Origin: Balanoglossus misakiensis
Taxonomy: Eukaryota; Animalia; Hemichordata
NCBI GenBank assembly: GCA_040954595.2
Contig: CM082584.2
Location: 1,643,344 to 1,707,343 of the forward strand
DNA: 64,000 nucleotides
Reading direction: 5' to 3'
Position numbers and translations under genes: made by a program. This document shows positions 17,801-40,166 of the stretch, one piece after another (the stretch's first letter is position 1; each line of letters starts with the position of its first letter). A model generated the notes under the pieces. It was given only the letters and a program-made list of their open reading frames with translations, was not told where the DNA came from and made no database searches.

Positions 17801-20437
17801 TTTTAAAAAAAAACATGGGTGAAAATCATCAAAAAATGAAAAATTTTCGACTTTGCAAAACCTCAAAATTTCGTCGATTTTGAAAAAAATTATGGGTTCG
17901 TCGATTTTTGAAAAAAAATCATGAGTGAAAATCATCAAAAAATGACAAATTTTCGATTTTGAAAAAAAATCATGGGTTCGTCGATTGTTTAAAAAAAACA
18001 TGGGTGAAAATCAACAAAATGACAAATTTTCGACTGCAAAATCTCAAAATTTCGTCGATTTTTGAAAAAAAAAATCATTGGCTATAGCTCATGAAAATCA
18101 TCAACAAATGTCAAATTTTCAACTTTGCGAAATCTCAAAATATCGTCGATTTTTGAAAAAAAAACATGGGTTCGTCGATTTTTGAAAAAAAACGGGTGAA
18201 AATCATCAAAAAATGACAAATTTTCGACTTTGCAAAATCTCAAAATTTCGTCGATTTTGAAAAAAATTATGGGTTCGTCGATTTTTGAAAAAAATCATGG
18301 GTGAAAATCATCAAAAAATGACAAATTTTCGACTGCAAAATCTCAAAATTTCGTCGATTTTTGAAAAAAAATCATGGGTGAAAATCATCAAAAAAATGAC
18401 AAATTTTTGATTTTGCAAAATCTCAAAATTTCGTCGATTTTGAAAAAAATCACGGGTTCGTCGATTTTTTAAAAAAACATGGTGAAAACCATCAAAAAAT
18501 GACAAATTTTCGACTGCAAAATCTCAAAATTTCGTCGATTTTTGAAAAAAAACATGCGTTCGTCGATTTTTGAAAAAAAAAAACATGGGTGAAAATCATC
18601 AAAAAATGACAAATTTTTGATATTGCAAAATCTCAAAATTTCGTCGATTTTGGAAAAAAATCATGGGTTCGTCAATTTTTGCAAAAAATCATGGGTGAAA
18701 ATCATCAAAAAATGACAAATTTTCGACTTTGCAAAATCTCAAAATTTCGTCGAATTTGAAAAAAATCATGGGTTCTTGCAAAATCTCAAAATTTCGTCGA
18801 TTTTGAAAAAAATTATGGGTTCGTCGATTTTTGAAAAAAAATCATGGGTGAAAATCATCAAAAAATGACAAATTTTCGATTTTGCAAAATCTCAAAATTT
18901 CGTCGATTTTTGAAAAAATCATGGGTGAAAATCATCAAAAAATTAAAAATTTTCGACTGCAAAATCTCAAAATTTGGTCGATTTTTGAAAAAAATCATGG
19001 TGAAAATCATCAAAAAATGACAAATTTTTGATTTTGCAAAATTTCAAAATTTCGTCGATTTTGAAAAAAAATCATGGGTTCGTTGATTTTTAAAAAAAAA
19101 CATGGGTGAAAATCATCAAAAAATGAAAAATTTTCGACTTTGCAAAACCTCAAAATTTCGTCGATTTTGAAAAAAATTATGGGTTCGTCGATTTTTGAAA
19201 AAAAATCATGAGTGAAAATCATCAAAAAATGACAAATTTTCGATTTTGAAAAAAAATCATGGGTTCGTCGATTGTTTAAAAAAAACATGGGTGAAAATCA
19301 ACAAAATGACAAATTTTCGACTGCAAAATCTCAAAATTTCGTCGATTTTTGAAAAAAAAAATCATTGGCTATAGCTCATGAAAATCATCAACAAATGTCA
19401 AATTTTCAACTTTGCGAAATCTCAAAATATCGTCGATTTTTGAAAAAAAAACATGGGTTCGTCGATTTTTGAAAAAAAACGGGTGAAAATCATCAAAAAA
19501 TGACAAATTTTCGACTTTGCAAAATCTCAAAATTTCGTCGATTTTGAAAAAAATTATGGGTTCGTCGATTTTTGAAAAAAATCATGGGTGAAAATCATCA
19601 AAAAATGACAAATTTTCGACTGCAAAATCTCAAAATTTCGTCGATTTTTGAAAAAAAATCATGGGTGAAAATCATCAAAAAAATGACAAATTTTTGATTT
19701 TGCAAAATCTCAAAATTTCGTCGATTTTGAAAAAAATCACGGGTTCGTCGATTTTTTAAAAAAACATGGTGAAAACCATCAAAAAATGACAAATTTTCGA
19801 CTGCAAAATCTCAAAATTTCGTCGATTTTTGAAAAAAAACATGCGTTCGTCGATTTTTGAAAAAAAAAAACATGGGTGAAAATCATCAAAAAATGACAAA
19901 TTTTTGATTTTGCAAAATCTCAAAATTTCGTCGATTTTGGAAAAAAATCATGGGTTCGTCAATTTTTGCAAAAAATCATGGGTGAAAATCATCAAAAAAT
20001 GACAAATTTTCGACTTTGCAAAATCTCAAAATTTCGTCGAATTTGAAAAAAATCATGGGTTCTTGCAAAATCTCAAAATTTCGTCGATTTTGAAAAAAAA
20101 TCATGGGTTCGTCGATTTTTGAAAAAAAAATGGGTGAAAATCATCAAAATGTCCAATGTTCGACTTTGCAAATCTCAAAATTTCGTCGATTTTTGAAAAA
20201 AAAACATGGGTGAAAATCATCAAAAAATGAAACATTTTAGACTGCAAAATCTCAAAATTTCGTCGATTTTGAAAAAAATCATGGGTTCGTCGATTTTTGA
20301 AAAAAATCATGGGTGAAAATCATCAAAAAATGAAAAATTTTCGACTTTGCAAAATCTCAAAATTTCGTCGATTTTGAAAAAAATCATGGGTTCGTCGATT
20401 TTTGAAAAAAAAAACATCGGTGAAAATCATCAAAAAA
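14807..20437 (-). repeat. Satellite 1, inverted arm, with more divergent variants (many ~110-bp units carrying a ~29-bp sub-duplication)
   Basis: Reverse complement of the same monomer (tgaaaatcatcaaaaaatgacaaattttcgactttgcaaaatctcaaaatttcgtcgat). A 1287-bp higher-order duplication is shown by ORFs at 17723/19010 and 18311/19598. Confidence 0.97.
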
Positions 20438-21921
20438 CATAGGTACTTGACTCAGAGTAAACAAGATTGTGTAATTGATACATGTCAGAACGAGATAGAG
20501 ATATCACGCGCTAAGTTCATGTTTAAGAAATATTAAGATGACGTGTTCTTTTTATGACATAATACTTGACTAACGTATTAATAAGAGGTGGTGAAATTTG
20601 ATATCACATTATTATCACCGGAGATCCGTGACGGGAGTCAACGAGCATGGATAGAGTCGTGTAATTCTTACGTGTGACCAGTAATAAACCAGAACTATTT
20701 GTGTTACTCGGAAAACTTGTTGAAAGTCTCGTTATGCCTCTCGTTAAGTTTACGATATGCCGGGTACCTCTCTCTGACTCTATGAATATGTTGGGTGGAG
20801 AAGGAGAGGGAGAGAATTTACACTCTCACCCTTCGGACGTGGCTGATTCCCCAAAGAAGCCCCGATGAGGTAAACGTCCGAAGGATGGCGGGCGTAACAA
20901 AACTACAGTGTTCGCAACATGACCTCAGGTCCGCCGCAGGTTTTGCATGTTACAGCAGAAAAAATCTCCGTCAGACCACTAAAAGTAATACCTTTAGGAC
21001 ATAAATTATTTATCTTGAAAGATATTGCTGTATGCAAAGATTGTCGGCCAGTCAACATCACCAACGATATTAACAATATAAAATAAATAAAATTTCAACG
21101 ATTCAACTTCTTTTCTAGCTTCCTATCTGGATAGTTTGTTTTATTTTACTCTAAAGATCGCCTTTCTTCCAGGCCACGTGGCAAGAGACGTTTTCAACTT
21201 CTACTATGATCGATGCGAGAGTACTATAGTATTCTCATATACACAGACAAAGGCCACCAAAATAAGAGAATCATTTGGTCAAATGGTAGAGGGCGCAAAA
21301 ACAGATATTTCAAATGACAAAATTTTCCGATAAACGTGTTTAATCAAATCAAACTGTGCTCAATGGTATGCTTGCAAAATTGAATACAAATGAAACAAAA
21401 CACAGCAACTGCCATGAACAAGAAGTTTATTCATGTCAAAATTCAATTTTTTTGAATCATTGATTTCAATTATTAGCTGAAAACTAAAATTAGATTGTCA
21501 TCTTGAACAGTATAAAATCAGCGAGCCATTAGACATTAAGTACCCAGCATACTAAAATAAAACCATGTAAACATGCACAATTAGATAATCAAATAATTTT
21601 TATTTATTCACCATGATGTTTTTAATGTATGTCAAGTCAAAGTACTTGAAGTTATGGACGATCAATTAAAATAGAAAACTGTAATTTTAATGGTTGGGTA
21701 ATGTATCCAATTTCTGCCCAATATATGAAATTTCCGAGTTAGCAACTGAAGAATTCGTGGGGAAAATAGTTACGTGATGTGTAACAGAATTCACTTGGAA
21801 GTAAGGAGTTTTTGTAAAATCAACATGCATATTACAATTTATTTGTAAAAACTTGATTGGCAATGGAAAATTGGCGTTTAAATATATAGTACTTCAAGAT
21901 GAACAGATAAAGTATAAGTTA

Positions 21922-21958
21922 CACTACGGGCCAGACCCACTGTAGTTTGAGCAGTATT
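21922..21958 (+). repeat. Left TIR (bipartite)
   Basis: cactacgggccagac-N11-tgagcagtatt matches the reverse complement of the right end, cactgcggcccaaac-N11-tgggcagtatt, at 12/15 and 10/11 positions. Confidence 0.88.
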
Positions 21959-22005
21959 CCGCGAAGCGCGATTGCCGCCATCACCGTAGCAACGCTTTTT
22001 CCAAG

Positions 22006-22659
22006 ATGGCGGCGGCCGTGTTGGTTGATACGGAGAAAATCATACAGCGCAAATTACGAGCTGCTAAGTCATTAATTCTGCGTCGAAAATGTATGTTGGA
22101 TGTTATACATGTACATTCCCTGTTTGATGAATTGTCCGATTCAGCCAAAAGGGTTCTACTGAGGAACGACAAGATTACAAAAGACAAAATTCGTTATCGA
22201 GATGTTGCGGTATTCCCTATTTTCCAACGTGAAATGGGTCACTGGCTGCGTTGTTTCCACGCACGCCTGTCAGCCTCACCTTCGTTGAGATCGCCTTGGA
22301 AAAGCGGCTTTTCTAGACAAATGCCCAAGGAAGTGTTTGCTGTATTTCATCATGACGCCACTCGGAATAGTTTTGGGATCCATGAGAAGACGTCCAAGGC
22401 CATCGTAACCTTGACCTTTACCAACCTATTGAAGCTGACTTACGTCCTGCGGAGAGGTTGCTGTGATGACAGAAATCTCGGACCGGAAGATAAGGAGAAT
22501 GTGCTGGCGAGAGTGGTCAAAGGAAAGCGAGTGGCTGTCATATGCACAGAAACAAAGCCGTGTATTGTCAAATACTACATGAACAGGGAATCTGTTGTGG
22601 TCAACTTTTGCTTTGGAGCCTGGAACAAACACAGCATTCCAATGCACTCAGAGAACTAG
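22006..22659 (+). CDS. Transposon accessory protein of unknown function, 217 aa, intronless
   Basis: Uninterrupted ORF with higher GC than its surroundings and a strong start context (caagATGGcgg). AATAAA follows at ~22769. It lies inside the TIRs and converges on the transposase gene. Confidence 0.75.
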   Translation: MAAAVLVDTEKIIQRKLRAAKSLILRRKCMLDVIHVHSLFDELSDSAKRVLLRNDKITKDKIRYRDVAVFPIFQREMGHWLRCFHARLSASPSLRSPWKSGFSRQMPKEVFAVFHHDATRNSFGIHEKTSKAIVTLTFTNLLKLTYVLRRGCCDDRNLGPEDKENVLARVVKGKRVAVICTETKPCIVKYYMNRESVVVNFCFGAWNKHSIPMHSEN

Positions 22660-23421
22660 AACATCAGTAACATTGCAAGTCTAATGCAAAATTGGCCTTC
22701 TGTCCAATACTCTTGACACTTCAGTCAATATATACAGTTTGTCGGTGTTGTGTTCTCATTAATTAAGAAATAAAAACAGTAGATTGAAAATGAAGTAGTA
22801 TTGTCTTTATTCAATTCCAACAATCAACATTACATGCAATACAGCAGAAGTACAAGGAATTGTCATGAATTTCATTATAAATTGCATTTAACTTTCTTAG
22901 CATTCAATAAATATAAAATCATTCAATTTGATATATACAATTCATGGGATTTGAAAGTTAACTTATTGTGATTTTAACTAAATTAAATTAATGTATTCTG
23001 ATTATCGTTAATTACTTAGCAAGGAAATCTTATAATTATATTCAATATTATTGTAATATGATAGACTTAAGACACAAACGTTTCAAATCTATTCATTTAG
23101 ACTGTAATAGAATATCACATTAACCCTGCATTTAAGGTTTGTGTTAGTACAGATAACATGCAGTTGTATCAGAATCATGACATGTTTATGTACACTGTGA
23201 GAATACTGAAGTTCATGATGTTGCATATATACCGTTTAGTTACAATGGCCTGACATGCATCTGTTGTAACAGTTGTGAACACAGAAGTGTGGCAGAGTTT
23301 ATTTCCAGTTTAATACATGTTAATAATATCATTCATTTCAATTTGACATTCACAACATTTCAACACGGTAAGTTAAAAACACTGAAACAGGAAACATTTT
23401 GCACAGAAGGGCAAAAACACT

Positions 23422-26350
23422 TCACAGAACAATTTTCTTCAGTTTATTACTCAGCTTGCCAGACACTGCTGCTTGTTTTATTTCAGCAATAACTGGGTCA
23501 TTACAAATTTTACATGTAGACACTGCTTCATCTTTCATGTTACCACACATACAGTAACCTGCACTGTCATAGTACAGACTGGGTATATATTTTTCTCTTT
23601 CTTTAAGTTCATACTGAACTAGATTGGCCCGCCTATATTTGTCTGCTTTTGGATTTCTTTCTCTTAGCCAAAAGAGCATTGTGTATTCATGGCGGAATAT
23701 GAGGGTCCACCTGTTCTGAGGAGTGGAATTCTTACTCAATTCAAGAAGACGAAGATGTTTTGCTTCTCGACCTTCCATAGTATTCAACCCCAAACCAAGT
23801 TTGAATTGCTGATACACACTTGCTGCATGTTTAGGTACTGCGTATCCAATATGCCAAACAGTATTATTTACATCAAAAAATAGTGAATGGAGGTTAAAGT
23901 ACCATGTACATTTCTGTTTCAGGACAAGTAAATCCCCTTCACTCAGATTAAACCTTGAAAAGAGCAAGGTAATATCCCTCAGCAACAACCCAAGATATGT
24001 GAAAAGAGCCAATCGAGCTCGCCGCTTTACACTATCTTTATCACCCATGGGTGTCTTAATCAGTGACATGAATTTCCATGCTAGTTTACGGGACTCTTCC
24101 CCAGTAAAGCGATAAACAGCACTTATTTGAGAAAGTGATTTTGCATTGTTTTCACTAAAGAACTTTCAAATTTTGTTGTACAGTTTTCCAGCTCTCACTT
24201 GGTATTTTAATGCAGACAGGAATTTGTATAGACAAGACTCCTTTGGGAGATTTTCAATCTTAACTCCCTTATCAAAATCTGTTTGTGAAGTGTGAGCAAC
24301 TGCATCTATCAACAGCATCTGGAAATAGTACTGCCATGCATTGTTTTTCATGTGCAATGGTTCAACTTTAGCACAGTCGATAAATCGACCAAGAGGGGGT
24401 ACAAATTCCTGTCTGGATTTTCTACTGGCTATAAATTTAGTGACTTTTGGCCGCACAGTTTTTGGCTTGCCATCTCTATTCTTTGGTTGCGATTTGAATT
24501 TCTCCACAGCTTCAACATCTTTAATGCGTTTGTCATATGACCATTCTTGCCATTTTTTACCTGGACCAATATCTGCTCCAATACAATCTCTATCTGACTT
24601 TGAAACATTAGCAAAAGAGCTTAAGTACTGTGCAGCATTGGAAAGCTCTCCAGGCATTGAAGCTAAACCTTTCTGATCAAAAGGCAAGAGCGAAACTTGG
24701 AAAGTCACACAAAGATTGCCAACATTGTATTTACGTTTCTGGATACAATTCAGTTCTTTTGATAATGAATGTGCATAGTCAATCATAATCGGATCATCTT
24801 CTTTGAGATTTGCCCCCAACAGTAGAAAATTATCATCTGGGCTTGCAACACGATGTCCAACATTCAAACAACTGACCAACCAGGCAGTAGCTTGGCCATG
24901 TTTTCCAAATGGTGCACCATCAGCACCTATACTAATCTGGAAGTTACCTTCTTGTCTATCAAACCAGTTAAGAATGTCTGGCTGGGTTGATTTCATTTGT
25001 AAATACAGATTGGCAATCTTAACAAGTAACTCTTCAATGTTACGTTTCAAACCTACCTGTTTCCCTTCTGCTGTCAGAATGGGTTCAAGAGTACAAATAT
25101 CAAGATTACTAACATAGCGTACAACTTTGTTGTATGTCAGTAATCTTGGTATTCTGCAGCCAAAGTGAAACTGCATTGCCCTACTTGGATTTTGTATTTT
25201 AGATGATGTTTGCAGTTCACTCAGCCTCAGACAAGTGTATTTGCGTTTTGATAGCACTCCACCCTCATACAGAACTCTGACACTCCTTATTAAATTGCTT
25301 TCACTTTTTTCAAATTGATCAATAGATTTGTCTACTATCGATGGCATTAATTTCTCTCTGATTTGAGGTGATGTTTTCAAATAGGTTTCAATCTGTTCAG
25401 GTTTGGCAGAGTTGATGAGGGTAAACCACAAACCATCAAGTGCAGCTTTTGAAGGTTTCAATCTGGTAAAATTACCTACACCATTGGCTAAACTGGTATC
25501 GGTTGTTGATACATGAATAGATGTGGCGGCTGACAAGGTTTTACATCTACGTTCATACTGTTCACGCCGTGATATTGTCAAAACCTCACTGTTATCTTTA
25601 CACACTTCTGAGTTCTTGTGAATCCACCTGGGTTGCAAAGCATCTAGTTTTCTCTGCAAGATTACACAAAAAAATGTACATGAAGAGGTTAGTGGATTTA
25701 TCAGCCTAAATTTTGAGCATTTCATTGTGATTATAGGAGCAAGCTAGTAATCCCAAGGACTTCAAAATATGCATGATAAAAACAGACGATGTTCCCCTAA
25801 CATTAGCTAACTGTGCATATGATTGAATTCTATTTGAGTAAAACTGACAAATTAAATTTATTCAATCGTTTAAACTCACTGTACCTTTATACTGTAGGTC
25901 CTAGCACCTAACTCCTGTCTCACATTATTATTCCTCTGCTCAAGTCTAGAAAGACGGGTTTTAGCCCGTTTTACTAGTCTTTTAGCAGCACTGATCTTAT
26001 TAAGGTTATCCTCGATTATGCTACTCTCCTGATCCCTCTTTCTCTTCCGCTGTCTAGACCACTCCCCCAAGTTAAACCGATATTTTGGCTGGCATTCTTC
26101 TGTCCTCTATAGCAAGGCATTAGTCTGCACTCTTTCTAGCAATGACCTAGTCTTTGAATTTTCTCTTAATAGCTCCTGTGAATGCTTTTCCTTTGCAATT
26201 TCTCTGGCTAGCTTCTGTTCCTTTGCCCACTGACCTATGTTGAAGTATGTTGTTTTCTTTCCTACTTGGCATGTTGATGGATAAACTTTGCAGGGGTGCC
26301 CTACATCTAAGTAACAGTTTACTCCACCACATACCTGAGCTGTTTCTGAT
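23422..26350 (-). pseudogene. RAG1/Transib-like DDE transposase, ~900 aa when reconstructed. Probable exons 26350-~25885 and 25653-23422, possible first exon 27209-27164.
   Basis: Motifs are collinear with the RAG1 core: LSKRKY, IGADG (D1, 24919-21), VASPDDNFLL, PFDQK (D2, 24676-78), EPLH, YRFTGEESRKL, TMEGREAKH (E, 23764-66). In-frame stops at 26107-09 and 24166-68 join ORFs in the same frame. Polypyrimidine-CAG acceptors lie at 26351 and 25654. Confidence 0.85.
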
Positions 26351-27255
26351 CTGAAGAGGAAAATTACAATGAATAAGAATGTATAATAATTAATAATTAT
26401 GCATGTATATTTATAGTACATTAGTGACTTTAGTATTTTTCAACCGATACCCAACAGCAATGCAAAGAAAATCACTGAAAGACATTTGATAAAACCTGCT
26501 CTGAGCTAGGCATATCGACCACAGCTCTCCATACATACCAACGTGTATACGCAGAGATGGGCATATTTCAATGGGAGAATTGGAGTGAATATAACTGTAC
26601 TGCGCAGACACAGGTTCAAAATTTTCTGTTTTGATTTTTAACTTTGCATTTATAGTGTAATGCATTAAGTACGTAATTTAGCTAAAACTATTGGTTCTCG
26701 ATTTTAAAATTTAATCCATTCCAACTCAGACTTTTGCTAACAAAACCACACGCAGTGACAGCTGAGACGTGTCGCCATTGCAGTACATGTAAACACAGCC
26801 GGAGGCGTACGACATGCTGAGGTATCGAGAATCGCTTGGTGTAATTTCGTTAAACCTGTGGTAGCAGTTGTTCAAATATAACATCCGTGAAATAACCATA
26901 GTTAGGTAAACTCGTATGGTTTTGAAATGTCAGATAACAGGTTAGCAAGGCTAAATCGTTGAATTTTCCACCCTGTGTAAGTGGTTGCTGAGGGCAGTGC
27001 TGTCGTTAGCAACAGCACACCCGCGCGGTAAATCAGTTATTTTTAAAGTTATTTCAGTGATTCAATATGAAATGTACAGATGAAATAATATTTTTGTTTC
27101 GTTTACTGTGAACACTATTATGTATGGTGCAGTAGATCGTAAAAAATGACAAGAAACACTTACCGAATTTCACTGTATTCAGGTTTCAGCTCCGCTGAGC
27201 GACCGCCATGATCGCGCTAATTAATTATTCATGAGCTATTGAAACGCGCCACAGA

Positions 27256-27292
27256 AATACTGCCCAGAGAGGGCGGCGTTTGGGCCGCAGTG
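27256..27292 (-). repeat. Right TIR (bipartite)
   Basis: The minus strand reads cactgcggcccaaac-gccgccctctc-tgggcagtatt. The second TTA follows at 27293-27295. Confidence 0.88.
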
Positions 27293-28420
27293 TTATTACA
27301 GATGTCATTTTACGACAACAAGGAATGGTAAATCGTTCTTTAATATCTTTAAAGATGCCAGGTCAAAGGTCACCTTTGCAAATTCAACCACTGGTACCAT
27401 AGCCATTTCAAATGTAGCCAAAAGTGCGCCACCACTTTCTTCAAACATACTGAAACCATCTACAGGTTACCGTAGTCCTATATCTCTTGGCATCCATGGC
27501 AGTTTAGCTAGTCATGAGCTGGCAAGGGGTGACCTGTAAGCTTTAAACTCTGGCTTCGGTAATGTCGACTCTGGCTCTGGCATATACTTGCAGGTCCTTA
27601 TGACCTTGGGGTGAACATGGTCATGAAGAAATAAATAGAATCTGTTTGGTGCATTGTCAACTTCATTTTATAGTTTCAAAAAAATACAATATGATGAGTA
27701 ATATTGTTGTTGTTTTCAAAGAGACTCACCACACACTTTAGTAAATCAATGACTTGAAAAAGTTTTGAGGACTATCATTTGTCTGAATCTCGGACCGCGA
27801 GGCACATACTACCTTAAATAGTTTCACTCGCAGCTTCTTGTGGGCAGTTTCTCCTTGGGTACCTGTACAGACACACCAGGAGGCCGTTCCCGATGAACAA
27901 CTCAACCCACATGAAAACATTCAAGCGTCTGGTCACACCCATTTCCGTCAAACAAGAACATGAATGAAACTGCGGAGGAAGAGAACGGGAGAGTGCCCAT
28001 TAACCCTGTAATGACCAATCATTTACTGGAACAAGGTTCAGGATGTACGATCACTGGAGTTGAAAATAAGGTCATGGATTTGAAAATTATTCTGAGTTAT
28101 GAAATTGAAAATACTTATTTTTCATTGTGGATTCTCCGACATAAATATTATCAAAAACAATAAGGGTTGTCTTTTTAATTTATGACATATAACGCCATGA
28201 ATCTAGCCCATTAATACAAAGGCAATACTAAAACACATTTCGGGTTAGCGTTATGACAACTTGAAGAAAGTATGAATACAAACTTTCTAAAGTAATATTT
28301 TAAAGGTTGGCGTATTGATTACAGCTTGTTTGTTCTGCTATTAATGGAAATTCGGTTAGAGCCGTTTGAGGCAACTCTTATTCTGTCAAAGTTATGGCGT
28401 TAACTTATTCTGTCAAAGTT

Positions 28421-28549
28421 ATGTTAACGCTAATCTGATTAAAATCAGATGTAGGGAACGGCGACGTGTTTTTATGCTGTCGCAGCATCAAAAAACTACG
28501 TCGCCATTCCCTAGGCCTACATCTGATTTTAATCAGATTGTGTTAACAT
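28421..28549. mobile_element. Short fold-back (MITE-like) element
   Basis: Inverted arms atgttaac..aatctgattaaaatcagatgtagg and cctacatctgattttaatcagatt..gttaacat. A related, diverged copy lies at ~28801-28905. Confidence 0.7.
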
Positions 28550-28575
28550 CAGGAACACTTTACATACATAAACTA

Positions 28576-28783
28576 CTGTAAAACACTTTATTTTAGCGAG
28601 TTGAAATTTTCACGATATCGAGAGAGGCTACTGTTTCGCGAGTATTAATTTTCGCGTTCTCTTATTTCATTCACTGCATCGTTATCTTCAAAAATAATTA
28701 TGCGACCTCTTATTTTTTATACCATTTTGGCTCTCACGTATCTCGCGAAAATGTATTGCTCGCGAAAATAACTTGTTTCACAG
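28576..28783. mobile_element. TA-flanked MITE (CTGT...ACAG ends)
   Basis: TA-ctgtaaaaca...tgtttcacag-TA, with sub-terminal ttttcgcga / tcgcgaaaa motif repeats in inverted orientation. Confidence 0.7.
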
Positions 28784-29467
28784 TATATGCAAATATGCAG
28801 TAATCTGAATAAAATCAGATGTATGGTACGACGACGTCTTTTACTTATGTGGTACAGTATTATTAGTATGCTGTCGTCATACCAACTGCGATTTTAGTCA
28901 GATTGTATGTACGTCAACACTGATTGTTGTGGCTGCCTTAAATAGGTTTTCACTTTGCGCTACCTCTATACGTAACGCGTTCACTCAGTAGACCAAAGTA
29001 CCCGGATGTCCAGCAGACAAGAGTTCCTGTTTATACCATGAGGCTAGAAGACTGTATTGTGTTATTATACAGTGGTGCAGTCTAGATTTTAGTGAGGGAT
29101 TGAAGCGAATCCAATTGCTTGCTTGAAACTCGCCCATCGTGATTGTGCATTGATAAAATACAATAATCATACCACAGAAACATAAATTCCAGCTGCGCCT
29201 ATCAGCGAGATTGTCATAGCCTGGAGACCAGGGCGTCGGGGAAAAGAAACGCCCGGGGACAGTCTCTATTTACGAACAGAATTCTGTTCGTAGAACGACA
29301 CGTGTGGTAAATCTTGCGTGTAAGCTAATTGGTCACTCAATGTTAACCACATGACATCGTCGCCTTCTAAATAAGGAAATAGAGGTGGAGTCATGTGTGA
29401 AATTCCCGCGATGGGATGTGGGAGTGGTTTTGAAGGTGTATGAATATTCATAACCAAGCTTTGTTAA

Positions 29468-29971
29468 AGGCACGTAAGGTGTAACTTTTGGGATAATTTT
29501 CATAATTTTTGTTTCAAACTGCACTACCATTAGTCCATGCAGATGAAGGTAGTGAACAATACACAAGCATTATAAACCCTAAGTATGAGTGCATATGCAA
29601 GTTTTAACCAGATAAATAATAAAGCTTTGCCGCAAGCAATTATGGCCGCCACCGTGGGAAAATGCAAGAAACAATGAAAATGTTGCATTTCCGGTTGTGA
29701 AACTTCATAAACAAAACATGATCTCATCCACTTGAGCTCATGGAAGTAAATGTACACCACTGAGACATCAGATTTTCATTTTTCATTGCAATATTGCGCT
29801 TTTTTTAAAATTGCAGGAATTTTCGTTTTTCTTTAATTTTTGGCCATTTTGTCATAAATAAGTGTTGAGCTTGATATATTATCATGAAATAGCATTTAAT
29901 AGACATAATTAAAAGCATATATGAGATTATTTAAAACTTTAATTTTTTATCCAGTTACAGCTTACGTGCCT
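29468..29971. mobile_element. Non-autonomous TTAA-specific DNA transposon (Kolobok-like), 504 bp
   Basis: TTAA-aggcacgtaaggtgtaact...agttacagcttacgtgcct-TTAA: TIR matching at 18/19 positions, with a TTAA TSD. Confidence 0.85.
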
Positions 29972-30638
29972 TTAATTATATCATCCAACCACTGGCGCCC
30001 GTCAACATTTGATAGATCACTCGTTATCCATTTGTTACTAAGCGACCTCGATCGTTGCCAAGACTACTATCTTTCAGCTCAGCAGGACTTGCTCGACTGT
30101 CCCCGAGCGTTGTATTTTAGATCGACGCCCTGGTCTCCCGGCTAAGATTGTCAATATATACGCCGCATGTTGCCAGCCAGGGCCCCGACTGACATTCCCT
30201 CTGAATATACACACCCCTCTATTGAAAACGGAACATTCCTGCAAGCAAAGCATGTTGTACTTGCTTACATCAGCTGTAGTGACTTGTGTAGACCCCCAGC
30301 GCGCGGCCTCTACTGTCTGTATATGGTCTGTCACAGTCCCCGGGAGTAACTGTCATGACAGAAATCGGTTTGTCAACGGCAAAACGGAGATAAGGTGTTT
30401 TTTCCGAATATAGAATATTCAATTCTGTTTGATTCGGTCATGCCCAAAGTGTGCGTAGCTGTCGTCCTCTGACAACGCTCGCTCATATTTCATGCGGAGA
30501 ACTTAAGTAGGTTCAAGCCAAGTTTTAATAGTTGGGCTAAGGTCTTCCCTGATAAGTGTTGAAATGTTTGGGGTGTTACTGTCCGGGCTGTAACGACTTG
30601 GGTCGTGGAAAATGGGGGCTGAAACGACTGGGGCCGAA

Positions 30639-30694
30639 AGGGTCAGAGTGCCGGAACGACCTGTTTAAACATGTCGTTCCAGCACTATGACCCT
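30639..30694. repeat. 56-bp near-perfect palindrome centred on TTTAAA
   Basis: agggtcagagtgccggaacgacctgttt|aaacatgtcgttccagcactatgaccct, with 3 mismatched pairs. Confidence 0.85.
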
Positions 30695-31682
30695 AAAGTG
30701 TTACCTAAGATAGTGTCCATCGTCTAGCCGTTATTGAAATTATAGACCCTGCAGCGAGACTGAGCATGATTTGTTGTTGTCATGAAACTCATCTCGTACT
30801 CCAGTCACTTTCATACAAAACGGCTATGAGTGTCCAATGGTCTTTGTTGAGACTGTTTGACATTGAATGACATTGACCTCGCGGGAGGATATCCTTCATG
30901 AATACAATGCAGGATATAATTTACATTGGCTAAGGGCTTTGAGGTGCACCAAATTAGTAATTTAGACACACCTTAATTTTTACATGCCACCCCAAACTTT
31001 TTTAAATCAAGAAACAAAATTGCAGTGCTTTTCCAATGACGCTTTTTAAAATGTAGAATCAGATTGTTTTCTTGTCGCTCAGGTGTCCAAAATAAATATA
31101 GCTGTGATCAATTCCTACTTAAAGCAAACAAAAGTAAATTGAGTTGAATGGGCACGTCCGGCCCATATTTGACCCATTTCACATTTTTTCTTTCTTAGGC
31201 TGCATTCACAAACACCTCTGGAGGGGGGGGGGAATTCATCTTTTACCGCTAATTTTCACATGCCCCCCCCCCTTTCACAACCCGAAATATTTTGAAATCC
31301 CCCTTCCGAACTGCCAAAATTTTGAAATCCCCCCATTTTCTTTCACAGAGCAAAACTCATAACTCTGCTCAAGCGCTCCCATGAAAAGAATTTGAAACTG
31401 ATGTTTCCCCTCATCAGTGGGTATTAAAACTGAACATTGTTTTTATTTTTTAAGTATTTTGTATGATTATAATTAAAAAATATACAACTTAGCTAAAATG
31501 CTTAGATGAGTTAATCAGATTTTCAAAGTCCACCTAAAAGATCATTTAATCTTTCCAGGGTGCGGTTTATGTTGGAGATAGTATCAGTTAGGCTATTTCT
31601 CAGAAAATCAATGAACGATCTGCGGACACCCCGAATAATATGTTACCACAACGCTAGCCAGGAAGCACATGGGACATTTCAC

Positions 31683-31925
31683 AATGAGGCAGTGAACACT
31701 GGGGGGAACCAGACTGACACGTTAACCAATCAGGGAGCTGTATGGTGAATAAATACATATTAATAAGACCTAACCTACAAGGTCCTGCATAATGAGGCAG
31801 TGAACACTGGAGGACCAGACCTACACATTAACCAATCAGGGAGCTGTAAAGTGAATAATGCATTGTAATAAGACCTAACCTACAAGGTCTGGTGAATAAT
31901 ACATAGTAATAAGACCTAACACATA
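31683..31925 (+). repeat. Short degenerate tandem repeats (~108 bp and subunits)
   Basis: aatgaggcagtgaacactgg occurs twice, ttaaccaatcagggagctgta twice and taataagacctaac three times. Confidence 0.7.
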
Positions 31926-32034
31926 AGGTCCCTCCAATCAGCGAGCCGCAAGTGGACCTTAGAGAAGTGGATAAACCAATCAGAACATGTAATACGTTTG
32001 CATAGGACCTGTAATGTAGGTCATTTTGAAACAG

Positions 32035-35000
32035 GACTAGTTCACCATGACCAACCACATGACCCAGGAAATCGATCTGCTCATAACCCACATAACACTT
32101 AGTTGGTCTCGCTGTTAACTTTGCCTTTCGTAGTCTGCTCATCAAATCTGTAATTGTCTTGATATGTTCTTCCCATGATGCAGTGTGGATCAGTATATGA
32201 TCGATATAGTTGTCTCAATCTTCATATCTCTTAACAATCTTCTCATAATTCTGCTAAAAGTCGCAGCACTATTTACAAGTCCGAAATGCATTTTGATAAA
32301 TTGGTATAGCCCATCATGCGTGATAAATGCCGTCAATTGTTTAGAATTATCAGTCAACGGGACTTGCCAATATTCTTTGCTGAGATCTACTTTAGTGAAA
32401 TAGTGATCCTTGGATAACTTAGCAAAAAGCAAAAAGCTCACTCAGGTCTGGTGTAGGCTCTGCATCAAACACTGTTATGCGATTGAGCTTTCTCATGTCA
32501 ACACAACAATGATTGGACCCATCAGATTTCTTCACCATTACCAGTGGAACAGCATATGGACTCTCTGAAGGTTCAGCTACTCCCATCTTAATCATCGTTT
32601 TGACTTCATCTTTCACTGCTTCACGGAGTGCATGAGGGATGGGGTATGGCCTACTGCATACTGGTGTTGGATCCATCAACTTGATGTCATGGAAACCCAG
32701 GTTGGTGTTACCACGAATATCAGTTAACATATCTTTGTAATTGATCAGCAACCTCCTCACCACTTGCTTCTGTATGTCTGACAAGTTGTCACATACATTC
32801 ACATCTGCAGCAAATTCTTTCTGCTTGAATGCAGGAACCCGCAGTAAGTCATCGTTTACTTTAACCCCTGTGTTCTCTTGTACTTCTGAAGATTCATAAC
32901 TCTGCTCATCTATCACAGATACACACACAATCTCAAGAAGTCCAGCTGATACTTATTCTAGCTGATCAGTTCTTCGATAGTACCTCTTCAACAGGTTGGC
33001 ATGGAATGTTTTCACCCTATGACCAAAGTCAATCTTGTAATCCATATTGCTCGCTTTCTCCACCACTGGAAAAGGACCCTTCCAGTGCATAAGTAGTTTA
33101 TTATGGTCAGTAGGTAGTAGCAATAACACCTCGTCACCTTTGTTGAACTTCCTCCATTTGGCCTTTCTATTGTAGTAGGACTTGTATTTGCCTTGTGATA
33201 TCTTCAGTTCTTGTCTTGCTAAATCGCATGCCTTCTTTAATTTCTTTTGAAGATCAAGGATGTATTGATAAGTCGTTTTGGTTTCTGGTTCACTGATCTC
33301 TCCAGTCCATAGTTCTTTCAAGATAGCCATTGGACCACGCACACTCCTCCCATAAAGTAACTCAAACGGAGAGAATCCTGTGCTCGATTGAGGCGTTTCT
33401 CTGTAGGCAAATAGTAAAGCATTCAGATAACGATCCCAATATGTTGGACGTTCCTCACACATCTTCCTGAGCATGAGTTTCAATGTACCATTGAACCGTT
33501 CCACTAGACCATTGAATGCTGGGTGGTATGGGGTGGTAGTCATCTGCTTTATAGACAAAAGCCGGCTGACCTCACGCATCACATCTGATGTAAATTGAGT
33601 TCCTTGATCTGTCAGAATTCACGTGGACACCCCACTCTTGAGTAGATGTCCAGGAGCGCCTCTGCAACAGTCTTGGTATCAATGTTAGTCAATGCAACAG
33701 CCTCCGGATAGCGTGTTGCATAATCAACAACAGTAAGTATGTACCTATTCTTGCGTTCAGTGCATGGATGAATAGGGCCAACCAGGTCTACTGCAATACG
33801 TAGGAAAGGGATATCTATTAGTGGCATACTTCCAAGTGGTACCTTGGTCACCCGTCCCTTTGGTTGTGTCCGTTGACATGAATCACAGGACTGACAGTAA
33901 CGGGAAACATCTGATGTTAGCCCAGGCCAAACGAAGTTGCTGAGGATCTTGTCTGTGGTCTTGTGAGTTCCGTGGTGACCACGCAGCACTGATTCATGGG
34001 CTAGTCTCATCACCTGGTTACGATACACTCTGGGAACCACCACCTGTAACAGCTTTTCACGAAATTGGACCATTGGCGAATTGAACTCTCTGTACAGGAT
34101 CCCATCTTTCATGATGAACTTCAACCTACCTCCATTCCTAGTCACTTTCTCGTCACCCAAAATTGCCTTCTCACGTAGTTTGTCAAGAGTGGAGTCTTCT
34201 TCTTGAGCTTGTTGAAGCTTCCCTGGCATCACCACTTCACCAACAGCTTTAGGTACTTTAAGCTCTCTGATTGGTTTTTGGTTGGCTATCTTCTGGGCTC
34301 TGGTCTCCACAGCATATGCTAAACCTGGTACCTGTCCAACAGTTGTACACAGTCTACATGTCGGCAATGGTTCCTGCCATGTAGTATCAGGATTCGAAGG
34401 GTCAGATACACCATCAATGTTGCCCAGTATTAAATCATACACAGGGTTCATCATGCACAGTGCAGTAACATCACCAACAAAGTAAGGGGTATCAACTTTT
34501 ATTGAGGCTACAGGTACTCTTCTAATAGTCCGATCTATCAGAACACACGTCCTGTACTCACCAGTCAGCTGACTACTTGACACCAGACTTCTTCGAACTA
34601 CCACGCTACTACACCCACTATCACGCAAAACGCTAACCAGCTTACCATCGACCAATCCCTTCATTACCGGCATCTTCTTCACTCCATGGGCACTACAAGC
34701 AGCACTCATCACTGGGAGCTTATGACCACATGGTAACACGAACTCCTTATTCAGTGTTGCATCTGTTTTATCTATTTCCATTGCTACCACCATACATGCA
34801 TAACCAGTGTCTAGTCCCCTGGGCTGTTGACGGTTGCCCCAATGTGTACATTCTTGTTTAGGTGGATAGTTTCTATCTTCTTCAGTTAACAATACCGCCG
34901 TGTTATGCATCTTTGGCTTACTTCTACAATCTTTGGCCATATGACCACCTTTACCACATACGAAGCACGTACCTTTAAAAACATGGGAACCATTGGTTTT

Positions 35001-35856
35001 GTTATTAAACTTCTTTACTTGATTTGGATATACAGCAGGCTTGGTATTTGCTGTCGGCTGGCTCCTTGGATTATTCTTGGCATTACTTGGCAGTTTCCAC
35101 CACCCTCGGGCATCTAAGTATTTTGAGGCAGTAGATACCATCTCTTGGACATTCTCTGGCCGTCGCTCTCTAATGAACATTGCCATGTCTCTGGAACATA
35201 CTCCAATAAACTGCTCTCGAAGTAACAGATCTGTAAGCCCATTGTACGTCTTTGGAGTACCAGCCAGTTCTACCCATCTGCCCAAATAGTCACCAATACG
35301 GTCCATAAACTTTTGAGCACTTTCATCATAATGTGGCATACACGAACGGAACTTGTCATGAAAACTCTCCTCACTTAACTGGTAAGCCCTCAATAACTCT
35401 GGTTTCAATTCATCATAATTATTTGCAGACGCTGCAGGCATTTGGTTGTATGTGGATACATCCTTACCTTGTAACAATATGCACTGAGATTCACCCCCAG
35501 TCATCTTTTTCCCACTTCTGAGCAGTGGCGTAGCGCTGAAAACGTTGAAGGTACGCATCCATATCATCAACATCCTCACGAAAACCCTGTAGTCTCGGAG
35601 CACGCGCTTTGGCCAAATTATTTTCAGTAACCTGCTGTTCTGTATTTTCCCCTTTCAATTTTAATTCTTGTAAGTGAAGTTGCATTTTCAGTATCTCTCT
35701 CTCATGTTCCTCGCGCCGCCTATTATCTTCTCTCTGCTCCTCTCTCTCAGTAGCCCTAAGATCCCTCTGTCTAATTTGTTCCTCTCTAACATAATCTTTT
35801 AAAGCAGTCCCTTCCAACCCAAATTTTTCTCCCTATCTTATATATTCTTTCTGCAT
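32035..35856 (-). pseudogene. Disrupted gag-pol: SCAN-like capsid region, CCHC knuckle, aspartic protease, integrase, reverse transcriptase
   Basis: Motifs LLREQF, CFVCGKGGHMAKDC, LRDSGCS, HHCC, IAVDLVGP, DQGTQF, NGLVERFNGTLK, WKGPF, KVDLSKEYWQV and FGLVNSAATF. YxDD is mutated to YIDH. Several frameshifts (~35490, ~33615, ~32440, ~32215) and stops are present. Confidence 0.93.
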
Positions 35857-36156: not shown

Positions 36157-37728
36157 TGTCAGAGGTGGAGGGCACCCCTCTGATTCCAGGATAAATATTG
36201 AGCTGCTCTCAGTGCCAAGGAGTAAACATCCGTGGATAAGGTATGGGGAGAAACTACACAAACCAGTGCGGATACAATAATACAGTTGATTTAATTTAAA
36301 TCAATTAAATAATATAAAGATAATACTAGGAATATAATTTTTGTGCACAATATGCACAATATCAAATGTCTCTGTCCTAACCAATTTAGCAGGTACAGGT
36401 ATGCTGATACAATTGGTCATACAATACAATGGGTTACTTAATATATTACATAAATGAATATATTCACAATATCACTATAGTTTATTGTCTATTGCATATT
36501 GTCTAAACAATGGTAAGTGTCACTTAGCTGTATATAACATTCATAGTAAACAATCATGATTCAACCACAATATGGGATGGAGTCCTGTATAGATGAACGA
36601 TGTAGCGACGATCCACATTACACATACAATCTGTGATACACCATGTTTTCTACCACTTGTAGTCCTCCAGTAGTCAAGTAAACACACTGAAGACTGACTT
36701 GTTAGATGCAAGTCTTGGGTTAAATGGCTGAATGAAAAATCAACAAACATTGACTGAAATGTCCACCTTAGCAACTGTTCACAAATGAATACTGACGTTT
36801 CTCAATAATAATTATCAGAAATTTGGACTAGTTAAAGCGTCATGATTACATGTGATATCATGGAAAATTATGCTTTAACTATGACCGTCCTATTACTTAC
36901 AAATTGTCGAATTTGACATAAATATCCATAAAAAATAAATTTAAGTTATAGTAAATAAATAAACAAATACATTACTTACACGAGAATTCTTCACCACACT
37001 TCATACTCAGCAATACCGGGTCTATAGGATGGTTCCACAGAACTCTGCTTGGAGCAATTTCCAGCCACACCACATACGACCATGCCAGCCACGCCAATCG
37101 CCCGACCACACCGGTTTGCACTGAATAAGCACAATTCTGCTTTCTAGAAGTACTGAATTTACTTCCACTCGAATTGCAGAAACAGTGGTCCTGAGAGCAC
37201 TAATGCGCGCTACAGCATTACATGGACACAGCAAGGTATGGTGCAATATTTCCCCTAGTATTTCTACTCACTGAGCAGGGAGACCCGACTTGTTGCTCCC
37301 TTCAAGACCTAAATTGAAGTGTGCTCTCTTACTACACGAAACTTAGCTAACGAAGCCCTATTCATTAACATGACAATACACGGTGTCACTACACCTGAAA
37401 TTATGCGGGCACCTGGGTTTCCACTGACTCCAGTACTACCTAATTATATGACAAGTTGGGACCGACAGTCGAGACCCATACAGCATTACAATCAACAAAT
37501 AGTAAACAAAATAAAAAAGTAAACAAAAAACAGGAAAACATTTTAAAAATACAAATAAAATTATGAAACTACTAAAAAAACAAAACAAAAACAAAAACAA
37601 CACAAAAACACAAAACAACAAGCGAGGTCAATAAAGATTAACGCTTACAAAGATAGAAAAAGTAAGACTGTTGTGATTATTGCTGGAATAGGCAATGTTT
37701 TAATCTACCTGCAAATACTGGTGTGACA
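36157..37728 (-). repeat. Putative 5' LTR (~1.57 kb)
   Basis: Bounded by TGTCA...TGACA. The inner edge abuts the PBS, and the outer edge coincides with the start of homology to repeat copy A. There is no second LTR to confirm it. Confidence 0.72.
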
Positions 37729-39634
37729 AAGATTTTCGGCCAGTCAACATCACCAACGATATTAACAATATAAAAATAAATAAAATTTCAACGATTCAAT
37801 TTCTTTTCTAGCTTCCTATCTGGATAGTTTGTTTTATTTTACTCTAAAGATCACCTTTCTTCTAGGCCACGTGGCAAGAGACGTTTTCAACTTCTACTAT
37901 CATCGATGCGAGAGTACTATAGTATTCTCATATACACGGACAAAGGCCACCAAAATAAGAGAATCATTTGGTCAAATGGTAGAGGGCGCAAAAACAGATA
38001 TTTCAAATGACAAAATTTTCCGATAAACGTGTTTAATCAAATCAAACTGTGCTCAATGGTATTCTTGCAAAAATTGAATACACATGAAACAAAATACAGC
38101 AACTGCCTTGAACAACAAGTTTATTCATGACAAAATTCAATTTTTTTAATCAGTGATTTCCATTATCAGCTGAAAACTAAAATTAGATTGTCATCTTGAA
38201 CAGTATAAAATCAGCGAGCAATTAGACATTAAGTACCCAGCATACTAAAATAAAACCATGTAAACATGCACAATTAGATAATCAAAGATTTTTTATTTAT
38301 TCACCATGATGTTTTTAATTTATGTCAAATCAAAGTACTTGAAGTTATGGAAGATCAATTAAAATAGAAAACTGTAATTTTAATGGCTCGGTAATGTATC
38401 CAATTTCTGCCCAATATATGAAATTTTCGAGTCAGCAACTGAAGAATTCGTGGGGAAAATATTTACGTGATGTGTAACAGAATTCACTTTGAAGTAAGGA
38501 GTTTTTGTAAAATCAACATGCATATTACAATTTATTTGTAAAAATTGATTGGCAATGGAAAATTGGCGTTTAAATATAGTACTTCAAGATGAACAGATAA
38601 AATATAAGTTATTACAGATGTCATTTTACGACAACAAGGAATGTTCAATCGTTCTTTAATATCTTTAATGATGCCAGGTCAAAGGTCACCTTTGCAAATT
38701 CAACCACTGGTACCATAGCCATTTCAAATGTAGCCAAAAGTGCGCCACCACTTTCTTCAAACATACTGAAACCATCTACAGGTTACTGTAGTCCTATATC
38801 TCTTGGCATCCATGGCAGTTTAGCTAGACATGAGCTGGCAAGGGGTGACCTGCAAGCTTTGAACTCTGGCTTCGGTAATGTCGACTCTGGCTCTGGCATA
38901 TACTTGCAGGTCCATATGACCTTGGGGTGAACATGGTCATGAAGAAATAAATAGAATCTGTTTGGTACATTGTCAACTTCATTTTAAACTTTCAAAAAAA
39001 TAACAATATGGTGAGTAATGTTTTTGTTGTTTTCAAAGAGACTCACCATACACTTTAGTAAATCAAAGACTTGAAAAAGTTTTGAGGACTATCATTTGTC
39101 TGAATCTCGGACCGCGAGGCACATACTACCTTAAATAGTTTCACTCGCAGCTTCTTGTGGGCAGTTTCTCCTTGCGTACCTGTACAGACACACCAGGAGA
39201 CCGATCCCGATGAACAACGACACCCACATGAAAACATTCAAGCGTCTGGTCACACCCATTTCCGTCAAACAAGAACATGAATGAAACTGCGGAGGAAGAG
39301 AACGGGAGAGTGCCCATTAACCCTGTAATGGCCAATCATTTACTGGCACAAGGTTCAGGATGTACGATCACTGGAGTTGAAAATAAGGTCATGGATTTGA
39401 AAATCATTTTGAGTTATGAAATTGAAATACATATTTTTCATTGTGGATTCTCCGACATAAATATTATCAAAATCAATAAGGGTTGGCTTTTTAATTTATG
39501 ACATATAACGCCATGAATCTAGCCCATTAATAAAAAAGGCAATACTTAAACACATTTCGGGGTAGCGTTATGACAACTTGAAGAAAGTATGAATACAAAC
39601 TTTCTAAAGTAATATTTTAAAGGTTGGCGTATTG
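37729..39634 (+). repeat. Copy B of the ~1.9-kb repeat, carrying the empty transposon target (TTA, 38609-38611)
   Basis: Collinear with 21037-21921 plus 27296-28317, without the insert. Confidence 0.95.
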
Positions 39635-39636
39635 CT

Positions 39637-40166
39637 TAGCATAATCATTTTTCCGTTTGCTGTGACATTTGTCTCCCTGTGAGAGTTTAAGTAAATGTAG
39701 AGTCACGCAAATTAGGCAACATCAATATCCCATACGTAATTCAGTGTGTTTTGTTCGCATTTTTGGTTTTCATTTTGAAAATGAACAAAGGACTTTCCTA
39801 TCATTGACCAACACTCGTATGAATACATCCAAATTACCCAACTTTAATTTTCCTTAAAGAATTGGTCAGCTCTGCGAATATATTTCACCTGACCACTTCC
39901 TTTGCTAAGGAAGAGTGTTGTTTATGTAATAATATTTTTATAATATTTATAACTTATGTAGCACATTAAATATCAACGTGCTTTAAGTTGTCCCATGGTC
40001 ATTTGAGCTAGGATGTTGGACCTAAATATTCCATTCAACTCCCTGGGGAGCAAACAACATCTCACCATCATTAGAAATGCCAAATTACAGTGCTTTTGGC
40101 CACGTATTAACCTGGGGATTTACAGTTAACTTTAAATACACACGCATATGCATTTAATCCCCATGT
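39637..40166 (+). repeat. ~530-bp repeat also found at ~43770-44290 (partly again at 40511-40760), ending in a satellite-2 monomer fragment
   Basis: Shared tcatttttccgtttgctgtgacatttgtctccctgtgagag... through ...ttacagtgcttttggccac. Confidence 0.88.

Follow-up and report, generated by a model that had tools for sequence, protein, structure and literature searches.

Two-component DNA transposons are an already known kind. PIF/Harbinger elements have two genes and a 3-nt target-site duplication, and a small Myb-like protein binds their ends and recruits the transposase; in En/Spm, TnpA and TnpD are made from one transcript by alternative splicing, and a second DNA-binding protein is needed. Closer to RAG1, the Transib transposase works alone and RAGL elements carry RAG2L; the target-site duplication of both Transib and RAGL is 5 nt, and the six-blade propeller of RAG2 takes about 350 amino acids (aa). 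Here, we analysed a 64,000-nt stretch of the hemichordate Balanoglossus misakiensis (contig CM082584.2; the whole stretch is called the window), in which an intact open reading frame (ORF) of 217 aa, termed ORF217, shares one inserted element with a transposase gene of predicted RAG1-like fold. A first-pass annotation had taken ORF217 for an orphan in the position that RAG2L occupies in ProtoRAG. Our findings suggest, with a probability of roughly 0.55, that a cut-and-paste transposon with two genes has ORF217 as its intact second gene, which likely encodes an accessory factor that the transposase of the element needs or uses.

In the excerpts of the literature on which we draw, RAG1L and RAG2L of RAGL elements are described as two convergent genes (PMC7204232). 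Chapaev elements are characterized by a duplication of 3-4 bp and invariable CAC...GTG termini (PMC4079192) and by an N-terminal Chapa zinc-finger domain (PMC4411706; bioRxiv 10.64898/2026.01.24.700457); the group is treated as a distant branch of the Transib superfamily, and Nematostella is one of the two hosts named for it (PMC4411706). The CMCT clade is given 5'-CA..TG-3' termini and duplications of 2-5 bp, and the motifs C(2)C and H(3-4)H are listed as common to EnSpm, Mirage, Chapaev, Transib and RAG1 (PMC12730594).

Results

ORF217 and the transposase gene lie in one insertion

Positions 21922-27292 form one insertion of 5371 nt with inverted CAC...GTG ends and a 3-nt target-site duplication, TTA, as seen by alignment to an empty site within the window. 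It carries ORF217 and the transposase gene in convergent, tail-to-tail orientation, which bears out the RAG2L-like position noted in the first pass. By blastn within the window, the flanks of the element (21035-21921 and 27293-28321) are contiguous in a second copy of the host repeat at 37727-39638, at 96% identity. There, the match of the left flank ends at 38611 and that of the right flank begins at 38609, an overlap of 3 nt. In the empty site, ...ATAAGTTATTACAG..., TTA occurs once; in the filled site, ...ATAAGTTA[CACTACGGG ... CCGCAGTG]TTATTACAG..., it stands on each side of the insert (outer brackets).

Contigs of two public DNA runs from the same organism, X1 and X2, were placed on 20400-32400 at 80% likeness. 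In both runs contigs end exactly at 21922, and breaks also occur exactly at 27294; one contig per run, of repeat-level depth, links 21917 to 27292. Word depth across 21922-27294 is at the level of unique DNA (about 116 in X1) and runs into the thousands in both flanks, that is, in the high-copy host repeat (20440-21921 and 27293-28321), whose 96% identical copy lies 10 kb off.

The ends of the element were located from the contig breaks together with the empty site; an inverted-repeat scan of 20000-34000 did not report them because the arms are too imperfect. One end matches the reverse complement of the other at 13 of the first 17 nt, and the two are alignable over about 50 nt. Both ends contain GCAGTATT at nt 30-37 and ATGGCGG about 85 nt from the tip; the left ATGGCGG provides the start codon of ORF217, placed 84 nt inside the left terminus. 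No second copy of ORF217, of the transposase or of the end motif was found within the window. As ORF217 lies within the same insertion as the transposase, it is part of the same mobile unit and not a separately inserted fragment.

The frame of ORF217, counted stop to stop, extends over 21946..22659, with ATG at 22006 and TAG at 22657-22659, and the computed pI of 9.9 agrees with the earlier description of an intact, basic product. In 2000 shuffles of the 1500 nt of 21922-23421, the longest ATG-initiated ORF had a mean length of 62 aa and a maximum of 173 aa, and none (0/2000) reached 217 aa. A Pfam search with ORF217 returned no family at E ≤ 1, and the ESM Atlas gave no usable match. The caution that the frame might be open by chance is valid for the window copy taken alone: an open frame of 651 nt is unsurprising here because the neighbouring transposase has two stops in about 2.7 kb. 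On the sequences at hand, the case for ORF217 as a gene comes from its relatives and not from its openness in the window copy.

ORF217 is a member of a family of small proteins with a basic C-terminal domain

An exhaustive phmmer search of 1.84 billion representatives recovered 69 homologs of ORF217 at E ≤ 1e-3, seven of them at E ≤ 1e-10. A word-indexed protein search with ORF217 at near lengths had given no match; this blank reflects the limit of the index, since the exhaustive search later recovered the family. With these 69 cluster representatives and a gene pair conserved in related loci (see below), ORF217 can no longer be called an orphan. The homologs range from 73 to 289 aa in length, with about two thirds falling within 190-250 aa, and the alignments span ORF217 from about residue 60 up to the homologs' own last residues. 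Among 20 clusters of the family that were looked up, none carried a meaningful functional annotation.

In an alignment of 40 members, the N-terminal third is variable and often acidic (pI below 6 in 21/40); it is followed by a W..RRL...PW...P.E.F block and finally by a terminal YGxWNxxGxPQH, with no conserved Cys/His cluster of the kind seen in a PHD finger. The C-terminal 150 aa are basic in all 40 members (pI 8.85-10.5). ORF217 of the window retains 8/8 nearly invariant residues (M1, R87, P97, F111, G204, W206, N207 and H214) and matches the family hidden Markov model (HMM), which includes the window protein, at E 5e-54. Across the 40 members, Pfam gave no match at E ≤ 1 (Kelch, RAG2, PHD and Myb/SANT: 0/40), so that the absence of kelch, PHD and Myb signatures claimed in the first pass holds for the whole family. 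The family profile found no match in a sequence search of the Protein Data Bank (PDB). Likewise, no similarity between ORF217 and the transposase was detected (hhalign probability 0.2; phmmer against 121 relatives, best E 0.36).

The gene pair is retained in related loci

We retrieved 80 metagenome loci with the transposase alignment, oriented them with the transposase on the (+) strand and searched their six-frame ORFs with the family HMM. A homolog of ORF217 (E < 1e-5; referred to as ORF2) occurred downstream on the opposite strand in 25 of the 32 loci that have at least 1500 nt past the transposase match, and the same layout was found in 15/18 loci with at least 2500 nt. Several loci carry intact pairs of transposase and ORF2: 746 and 208 aa in L056, 746 and 200 aa in L010, 754 and 211 aa in L017, 743 and 213 aa in L057, and 724 and 207 aa in L005-L009. 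In a direct comparison by phmmer, window ORF217 matched the ORF2 of L056 at E 2e-21.

In two loci, L049 and L053, whose transposases are 28-29% identical to that of the window, the homolog is located upstream on the same strand as the transposase. Linkage of the two genes thus outlasts a change of gene order. In these most distant transposase relatives, L049:2626-2961 and L053:897-1259 encode an ORF217-like C-terminal half that seems to be interrupted by an intron and terminates in ...NSHGVPQW.

The relatives also resemble the window element in their ends. Inverted CAC/GTG ends were present in 5 of 10 loci searched (L017, L013, L014, L003 and L001), with ORF2 starting 77-96 nt inside. Three of these five are flanked by a 3-nt duplication (ATT in L017, TAG in L014 and AGC in L003); none was recognisable in L013 and L001. 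Terminal inverted repeats were not found in L056, L010, L057, L055 and L080, several of which have little upstream DNA. L006-L009 share a common 7.38-kb unit in differing flanks, which has the ends CACGCCGAGCT...AGCTCGGCGTG and an ORF2 start 98 nt from the end. The 84 nt between start codon and terminus in the window fit the 77-98 nt of the relatives. As a separate observation, L006:6934-7041, inside ORF2, recurs in inverted form at about L006:789-895 with about 92% identity, and the same 108-nt recurrence is found in L007-L009; it may represent a long subterminal inverted repeat that overlaps coding sequence.

ORF2 evolves under purifying selection

Among the 276 pairs formed by 24 ORF2 coding sequences, 11 had 0.03 < dS < 1.5. 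The dN/dS ratio was 0.30-0.52 in the nine pairs with dS < 0.5 and 0.77-0.84 in two pairs near saturation. Bootstrapping of two independent pairs yielded 0.33 (0.18-0.62) for L057/L070 and 0.29 (0.16-0.49) for L005/L028. The ORF217 family is under purifying selection. The first-pass annotation had raised the prospects of missing homologs, neutral drift and separate insertion; what we find are homologs, a dN/dS of about 0.3 and an ORF217 that was not separately inserted.

Identities of transposase and ORF2 decrease together, with ORF2 dropping faster (60/55, 50/48, 45/34, 41/26 and 36/23%, respectively), and were correlated with a Pearson r of 0.81 over 91 non-independent pairs.

A further relative comes from the same organism. 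A 2205-nt contig of run X1, whose word depth is about 15-fold that of the window copy (depth being a rough guide), matches 21947-22060, which takes in the 5' end of the ORF, and 22610-22657, its last 48 nt, at about 82% identity. The two matches are separated by 546 nt in the contig and by 549 nt in the window, a difference of one codon, and the contig has CACTGCGGG in register with the window terminus. Similarity ceases exactly at the stop codon, which is TGA in the contig, and a 30-nt loose end reads NRETVAVRF in frame, compared to NRESVVVNF in the window. This is the pattern expected of a diverged coding paralog of ORF217. At 80% likeness, no transposase sequence of similar depth turned up, so the paralog may derive from a sister family that is more diverged or non-autonomous.

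The transposase is predicted to adopt the RAG1/Transib core fold

The transposase gene occupies two adjoining (-) frames, 24166..25743 and 23422..24165, parted by a single in-frame TGA (24166-24168), and an upstream exon with an in-frame TAG (26107-26109); the two stops reported in the first pass are thus confirmed. Putative splice sites (ttcag|A at 26350, AAG|gtac at 25885 and cag|AGA at 25653) join the exons in frame. The last exon, 23422..25653, contains the candidate catalytic residues D245, D326 and E630 and a C-terminal CxC...CxxC. Further upstream, the ATGGCGG of a candidate 5' exon is located 84-90 nt from the right terminus.

The run contigs, which represent either the other allele or a sister copy, carry sense codons at both stops, with GGA in place of TGA (X1 and X2) and AAG in place of TAG (X1 only; run X2 has no contig at 26107-26109). 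They differ from the window transposase at 10 coding positions, comprising one synonymous change, seven missense changes and the first bases of both stops; 9/10 differences alter the protein. At three difference sites compared by eye with the relative P0002, the odd residue was that of the window. The window transposase looks like the decaying copy. ORF217 shows no difference between window and run contigs where about 2.4 would be expected at the transposase rate, a count that is suggestive only. The copy of the element in the window is young.

The closest match to the transposase is an uncharacterized protein of Ptychodera flava (80% identity), followed by 123 further relatives (119 of the 123 listed). 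These are 31-44% identical in a 36-row alignment and 30-44% by best local BLASTP among the matches listed, and they include sequences of the cnidarians Nematostella, Actinia, Porites, Dendronephthya, Oculina and Paramuricea. One relative, P0001 (Dendronephthya gigantea LOC114531418, 1124 aa), has 460 N-terminal residues joined to the transposase, with weak CUE and HECT-like matches below the Pfam cut-offs; the fusion could stem from the gene model or be a domesticated one. Neither the window transposase nor any of the 36 aligned relatives matched a Pfam family, and searches of PDB sequences with phmmer and with the 36-sequence profile gave no match and hence no RAG1, Transib or RAGL chain.

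An AlphaFold model of the transposase, computed with the 36-sequence alignment, reached a pLDDT of 86.4 and a pTM of 0.81. Foldseek with this model ranked RAG1 first (E 3e-12), followed by HzTransib (5e-8), BbRAGL (4e-6) and the P element (9e-3). Correspondingly, VIA-align superimposed model residues 114-670 on RAG1 461-1006 (Z 22.6, rmsd 3.5 Å over 463 residues), with Z scores of 20.2 for HzTransib and 20.0 for BbRAGL, against 11.1 for the P element, the nearest unrelated class, and 5.5 for Hermes. The transposase is therefore predicted to have the RAG1/Transib core fold, and the spacing of the conserved residues D245, D326 and E630 suggests that they likely form the catalytic triad.

The element resides in an island of repeats

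The window is animal-like DNA in which three long satellite arrays (1-20437, 44384-54000 and 58853-64000) surround a 24-kb island of repeats. The first array is 20 kb long and AT-rich (26% GC), consists of 78/105-nt units and switches strand near 14800, where the sign of the AT skew flips; the units of the other two are 196 nt and 116 nt, respectively. Within the island, a long terminal repeat (LTR) retroelement Gag-Pol at 32419-35654 (-) consists of three adjoining frames of 680, 221 and 177 aa parted by stops, in which a CCHC knuckle and integrase-like and reverse-transcriptase-like stretches can be recognised by eye. Perfect 24-nt inverted repeats at 28432-28539 and 28802-28823 are found in a stretch whose word depth is about 200,000 to 350,000 and which is probably a very abundant repeat resembling a miniature inverted-repeat transposable element (MITE). 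The features of the element are compiled in Table 1.

Table 1 Features of the two-gene element and of its empty site (positions in the window)
Feature	Position	Strand	Basis and remarks
Left target-site duplication copy, TTA	21919..21921	.	Empty site compared with filled site
Left terminal inverted repeat, begins CACTACGGGCCAGAC	21922..21971	+	Match to right end; contig breaks
ORF217, second gene of the element	22006..22659	+	217 aa, stop TAG; family homologs
AATAAA, candidate polyadenylation signal of ORF217	22769..22774	+	Sequence only
Last and largest transposase coding exon, in-frame TGA 24166-24168	23422..25653	-	Putative start from cag|AGA acceptor
Upstream transposase exon, in-frame TAG 26107-26109	25885..26350	-	Putative splice sites ttcag|A, AAG|gtac
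Candidate 5' transposase exon	27164..27208	-	ATGGCGG, short frame, putative donor G|gtaagt; start codon provisional
Right terminal inverted repeat, reverse complement begins CACTGCGGCCCAAAC	27243..27292	-	Match to left end
Right target-site duplication copy, TTA	27293..27295	.	Empty site compared with filled site
Second host-repeat copy, uninterrupted, empty site 38609-38611	37727..39638	+	blastn of flanks; alignment

Discussion

As its family accompanies the same transposase family in many distant relatives, ORF217 is likely a helper of its transposase, as RAG2 is for RAG1, though it is unrelated to RAG2. A promoter in the left end would drive inward transcription of ORF217, and the basic C-terminal 150 residues of its product may bind the DNA of the transposon ends, the transposase, or both. 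Such binding would help to assemble or activate the cleavage complex, as is the case for RAG2, the Harbinger Myb-like protein and TnpA of En/Spm. We favour a direct role of this kind because the conserved domain is uniformly basic and because the second genes of the RAG2L, Harbinger and En/Spm systems target the ends or the transposase.

Several points weigh against an accessory factor encoded by a genuine second gene. The intactness of ORF217 in the window proves nothing by itself because the copy is young, and a single-sequence AlphaFold model of ORF217 was unusable (pLDDT 35). Seven of the 32 loci had no homolog at E < 1e-5 (L027, L054, L061, L068, L071, L072 and L073), L071 and L072 having a weak match only (E 2e-4). 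The loci are, moreover, not independent, with near-identical members in L005-L009, L013/L014, L057/L059/L064 and L032/L048. Co-divergence is weak when the 83 pairs below 90% identity are considered (Spearman just 0.35), and L008/L059 is an outlier with 50% identity of the transposases and 22% of ORF2. Finally, the PDB entries of HzTransib are transposase-DNA complexes whose titles name no second protein chain; a partner is thus not obligatory for a RAG1-fold enzyme.

A regulatory or host-directed role suits the data almost as well. ORF217 could act outside catalysis, as a repressor of transposition or as an anti-silencing or nuclear-import factor directed at the host. Conservation, linkage and purifying selection would suit any function that is useful to the element, and the putative inward-facing transcription unit of its own near the terminus, as well as the variable, often acidic N-terminal third reminiscent of adaptor or regulatory proteins, are in line with such a regulator. 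Our data do not separate a regulator from a cofactor; the uniformly basic conserved domain and the precedents from two-gene transposons, the latter an argument by analogy only, favour a direct role at the ends. We regard the regulator as the strongest competitor, albeit a less likely one.

Alternatively, ORF217 might be a passenger, a host gene captured once and carried without a role in transposition. This would account for the lack of any recognisable transposon-type domain in the family and for the paralog of 15-fold depth, beside which no transposase part was seen at 80% likeness. However, the pair has been retained next to transposases just 33-37% identical to that of the window and in two different gene orders, ORF2 starts at a fixed 77-98 nt from the terminus, and all family members that were traced to DNA here adjoin a transposase. 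We therefore consider a passenger improbable. Even less credit goes to an extremely diverged or truncated RAG2-like protein in a degenerate member of RAGL/ProtoRAG, to which the convergent position beside a RAG1-fold gene within CAC...GTG ends might point. As the first-pass annotation had already remarked, 217 aa are too few for a six-blade propeller, and most of the family, at about 200-245 aa, is too short as well; matches to the RAG2, Kelch and PHD families of Pfam at E ≤ 1 are 0/40, the family profile retrieves no RAG2 chain from the PDB despite the many RAG1/2 entries there, and the duplication has 3 nt, not 5. A chance open frame or dead remnant, for which it speaks that 651 nt could stay open unselected in a young copy next to a gene with two stops in about 2.7 kb, is for practical purposes refuted by the 0/2000 shuffles reaching 217 aa, the 69 homologous representatives, the dN/dS of about 0.3 and the retention of all nearly invariant residues.

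If ORF217 is an accessory factor, the element may represent, more tentatively and with the odds against it, a second two-subunit system among RAG1-fold transposases, namely a lineage present in cnidarian-associated DNA and in a hemichordate-like genome that has lost the RAG1/CMCT zinc motif, makes 3-nt duplications and relies obligately on a small basic cofactor from an undescribed protein family. In that event, dependence on a partner would have arisen more than once or would predate the split of RAG-like and Chapaev-like elements. The origin of V(D)J recombination poses the open question of how RAG1 became dependent on RAG2, and a distant lineage of predicted RAG1 fold with a different conserved partner in the same place offers an independent natural case in which to ask how a second subunit benefits a RAG1-type enzyme. 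The intact cognate pairs (L056, L010, L017, L057 and L005-L009) together with the sense codons in the run contigs make this question directly testable. What appears to be new is a partner family without a name, Pfam entry or PDB relative, and the pairing of this family with RAG1-fold transposases of a lineage devoid of the clade's zinc motif. With this, two protein families are defined that Pfam lacks, and hundreds of 'hypothetical' proteins of 200 aa in marine-invertebrate and holobiont data are shown to be products of transposon genes.

Among the known systems, RAGL/ProtoRAG resembles the element in layout; the two share convergent genes within inverted repeats that begin with CAC and a transposase with the predicted RAG1 core fold. 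In contrast, its partner protein is basic, has about 210 aa and is without a kelch, RAG2 or PHD signature. Unlike RAGL and Transib, the duplication in the window is 3 nt, neither the transposase nor the 36-sequence profile has a RAG1 match in Pfam or among PDB sequences, and the C(2)C/H(3-4)H motif is missing from the transposase. By its 3-nt duplication, the missing zinc motif, the non-kelch partner and the lack of a RAG1 sequence match, the element is not a ProtoRAG, and this part of the first-pass annotation is not supported.

The likeness to Chapaev extends to the CAC...GTG termini and the 3-nt duplication, in the window as well as in its relatives, and to the presence of the transposase family in Nematostella and other cnidarians. 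However, C(2)C occurs in just 1/36 of the aligned transposases, and a conserved H(3-4)H is absent from the alignment, where only H434, C582 and H609 are conserved in that stretch; both motifs would be expected for Chapaev and the CMCT clade. The N-terminal part of the 36-row alignment has no conserved cysteine-rich block, with the 5' exons of most relatives missing from view, and the upstream exon of the window transposase offers only the pattern C-x4-C-x5-H-x-C-x7-C. No mention of a second gene in Chapaev or Transib-like elements was found in the excerpted literature, whose scope excludes the original Repbase Reports. We call the element Chapaev-like because of its CAC...GTG termini, its 3-nt duplication and the published placement of Chapaev with Transib; it is not filed as Chapaev because one published signature fails.

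En/Spm (CACTA) belongs to the wider clade and shares the 3-nt duplication, and the left end in the window reads CACTA; yet the window has two separate convergent genes, and its transposase has no Pfam match to the plant CACTA transposase families. PIF/Harbinger, finally, differs in that its transposase is unrelated in fold and size to the RAG1-like enzyme of the window, which has no DDE_Tnp_4 match, and in that the ORF217 family has no Myb/SANT match. Nevertheless, it is likewise a two-gene DNA transposon with a 3-nt duplication, and it serves as our working model for ORF217.

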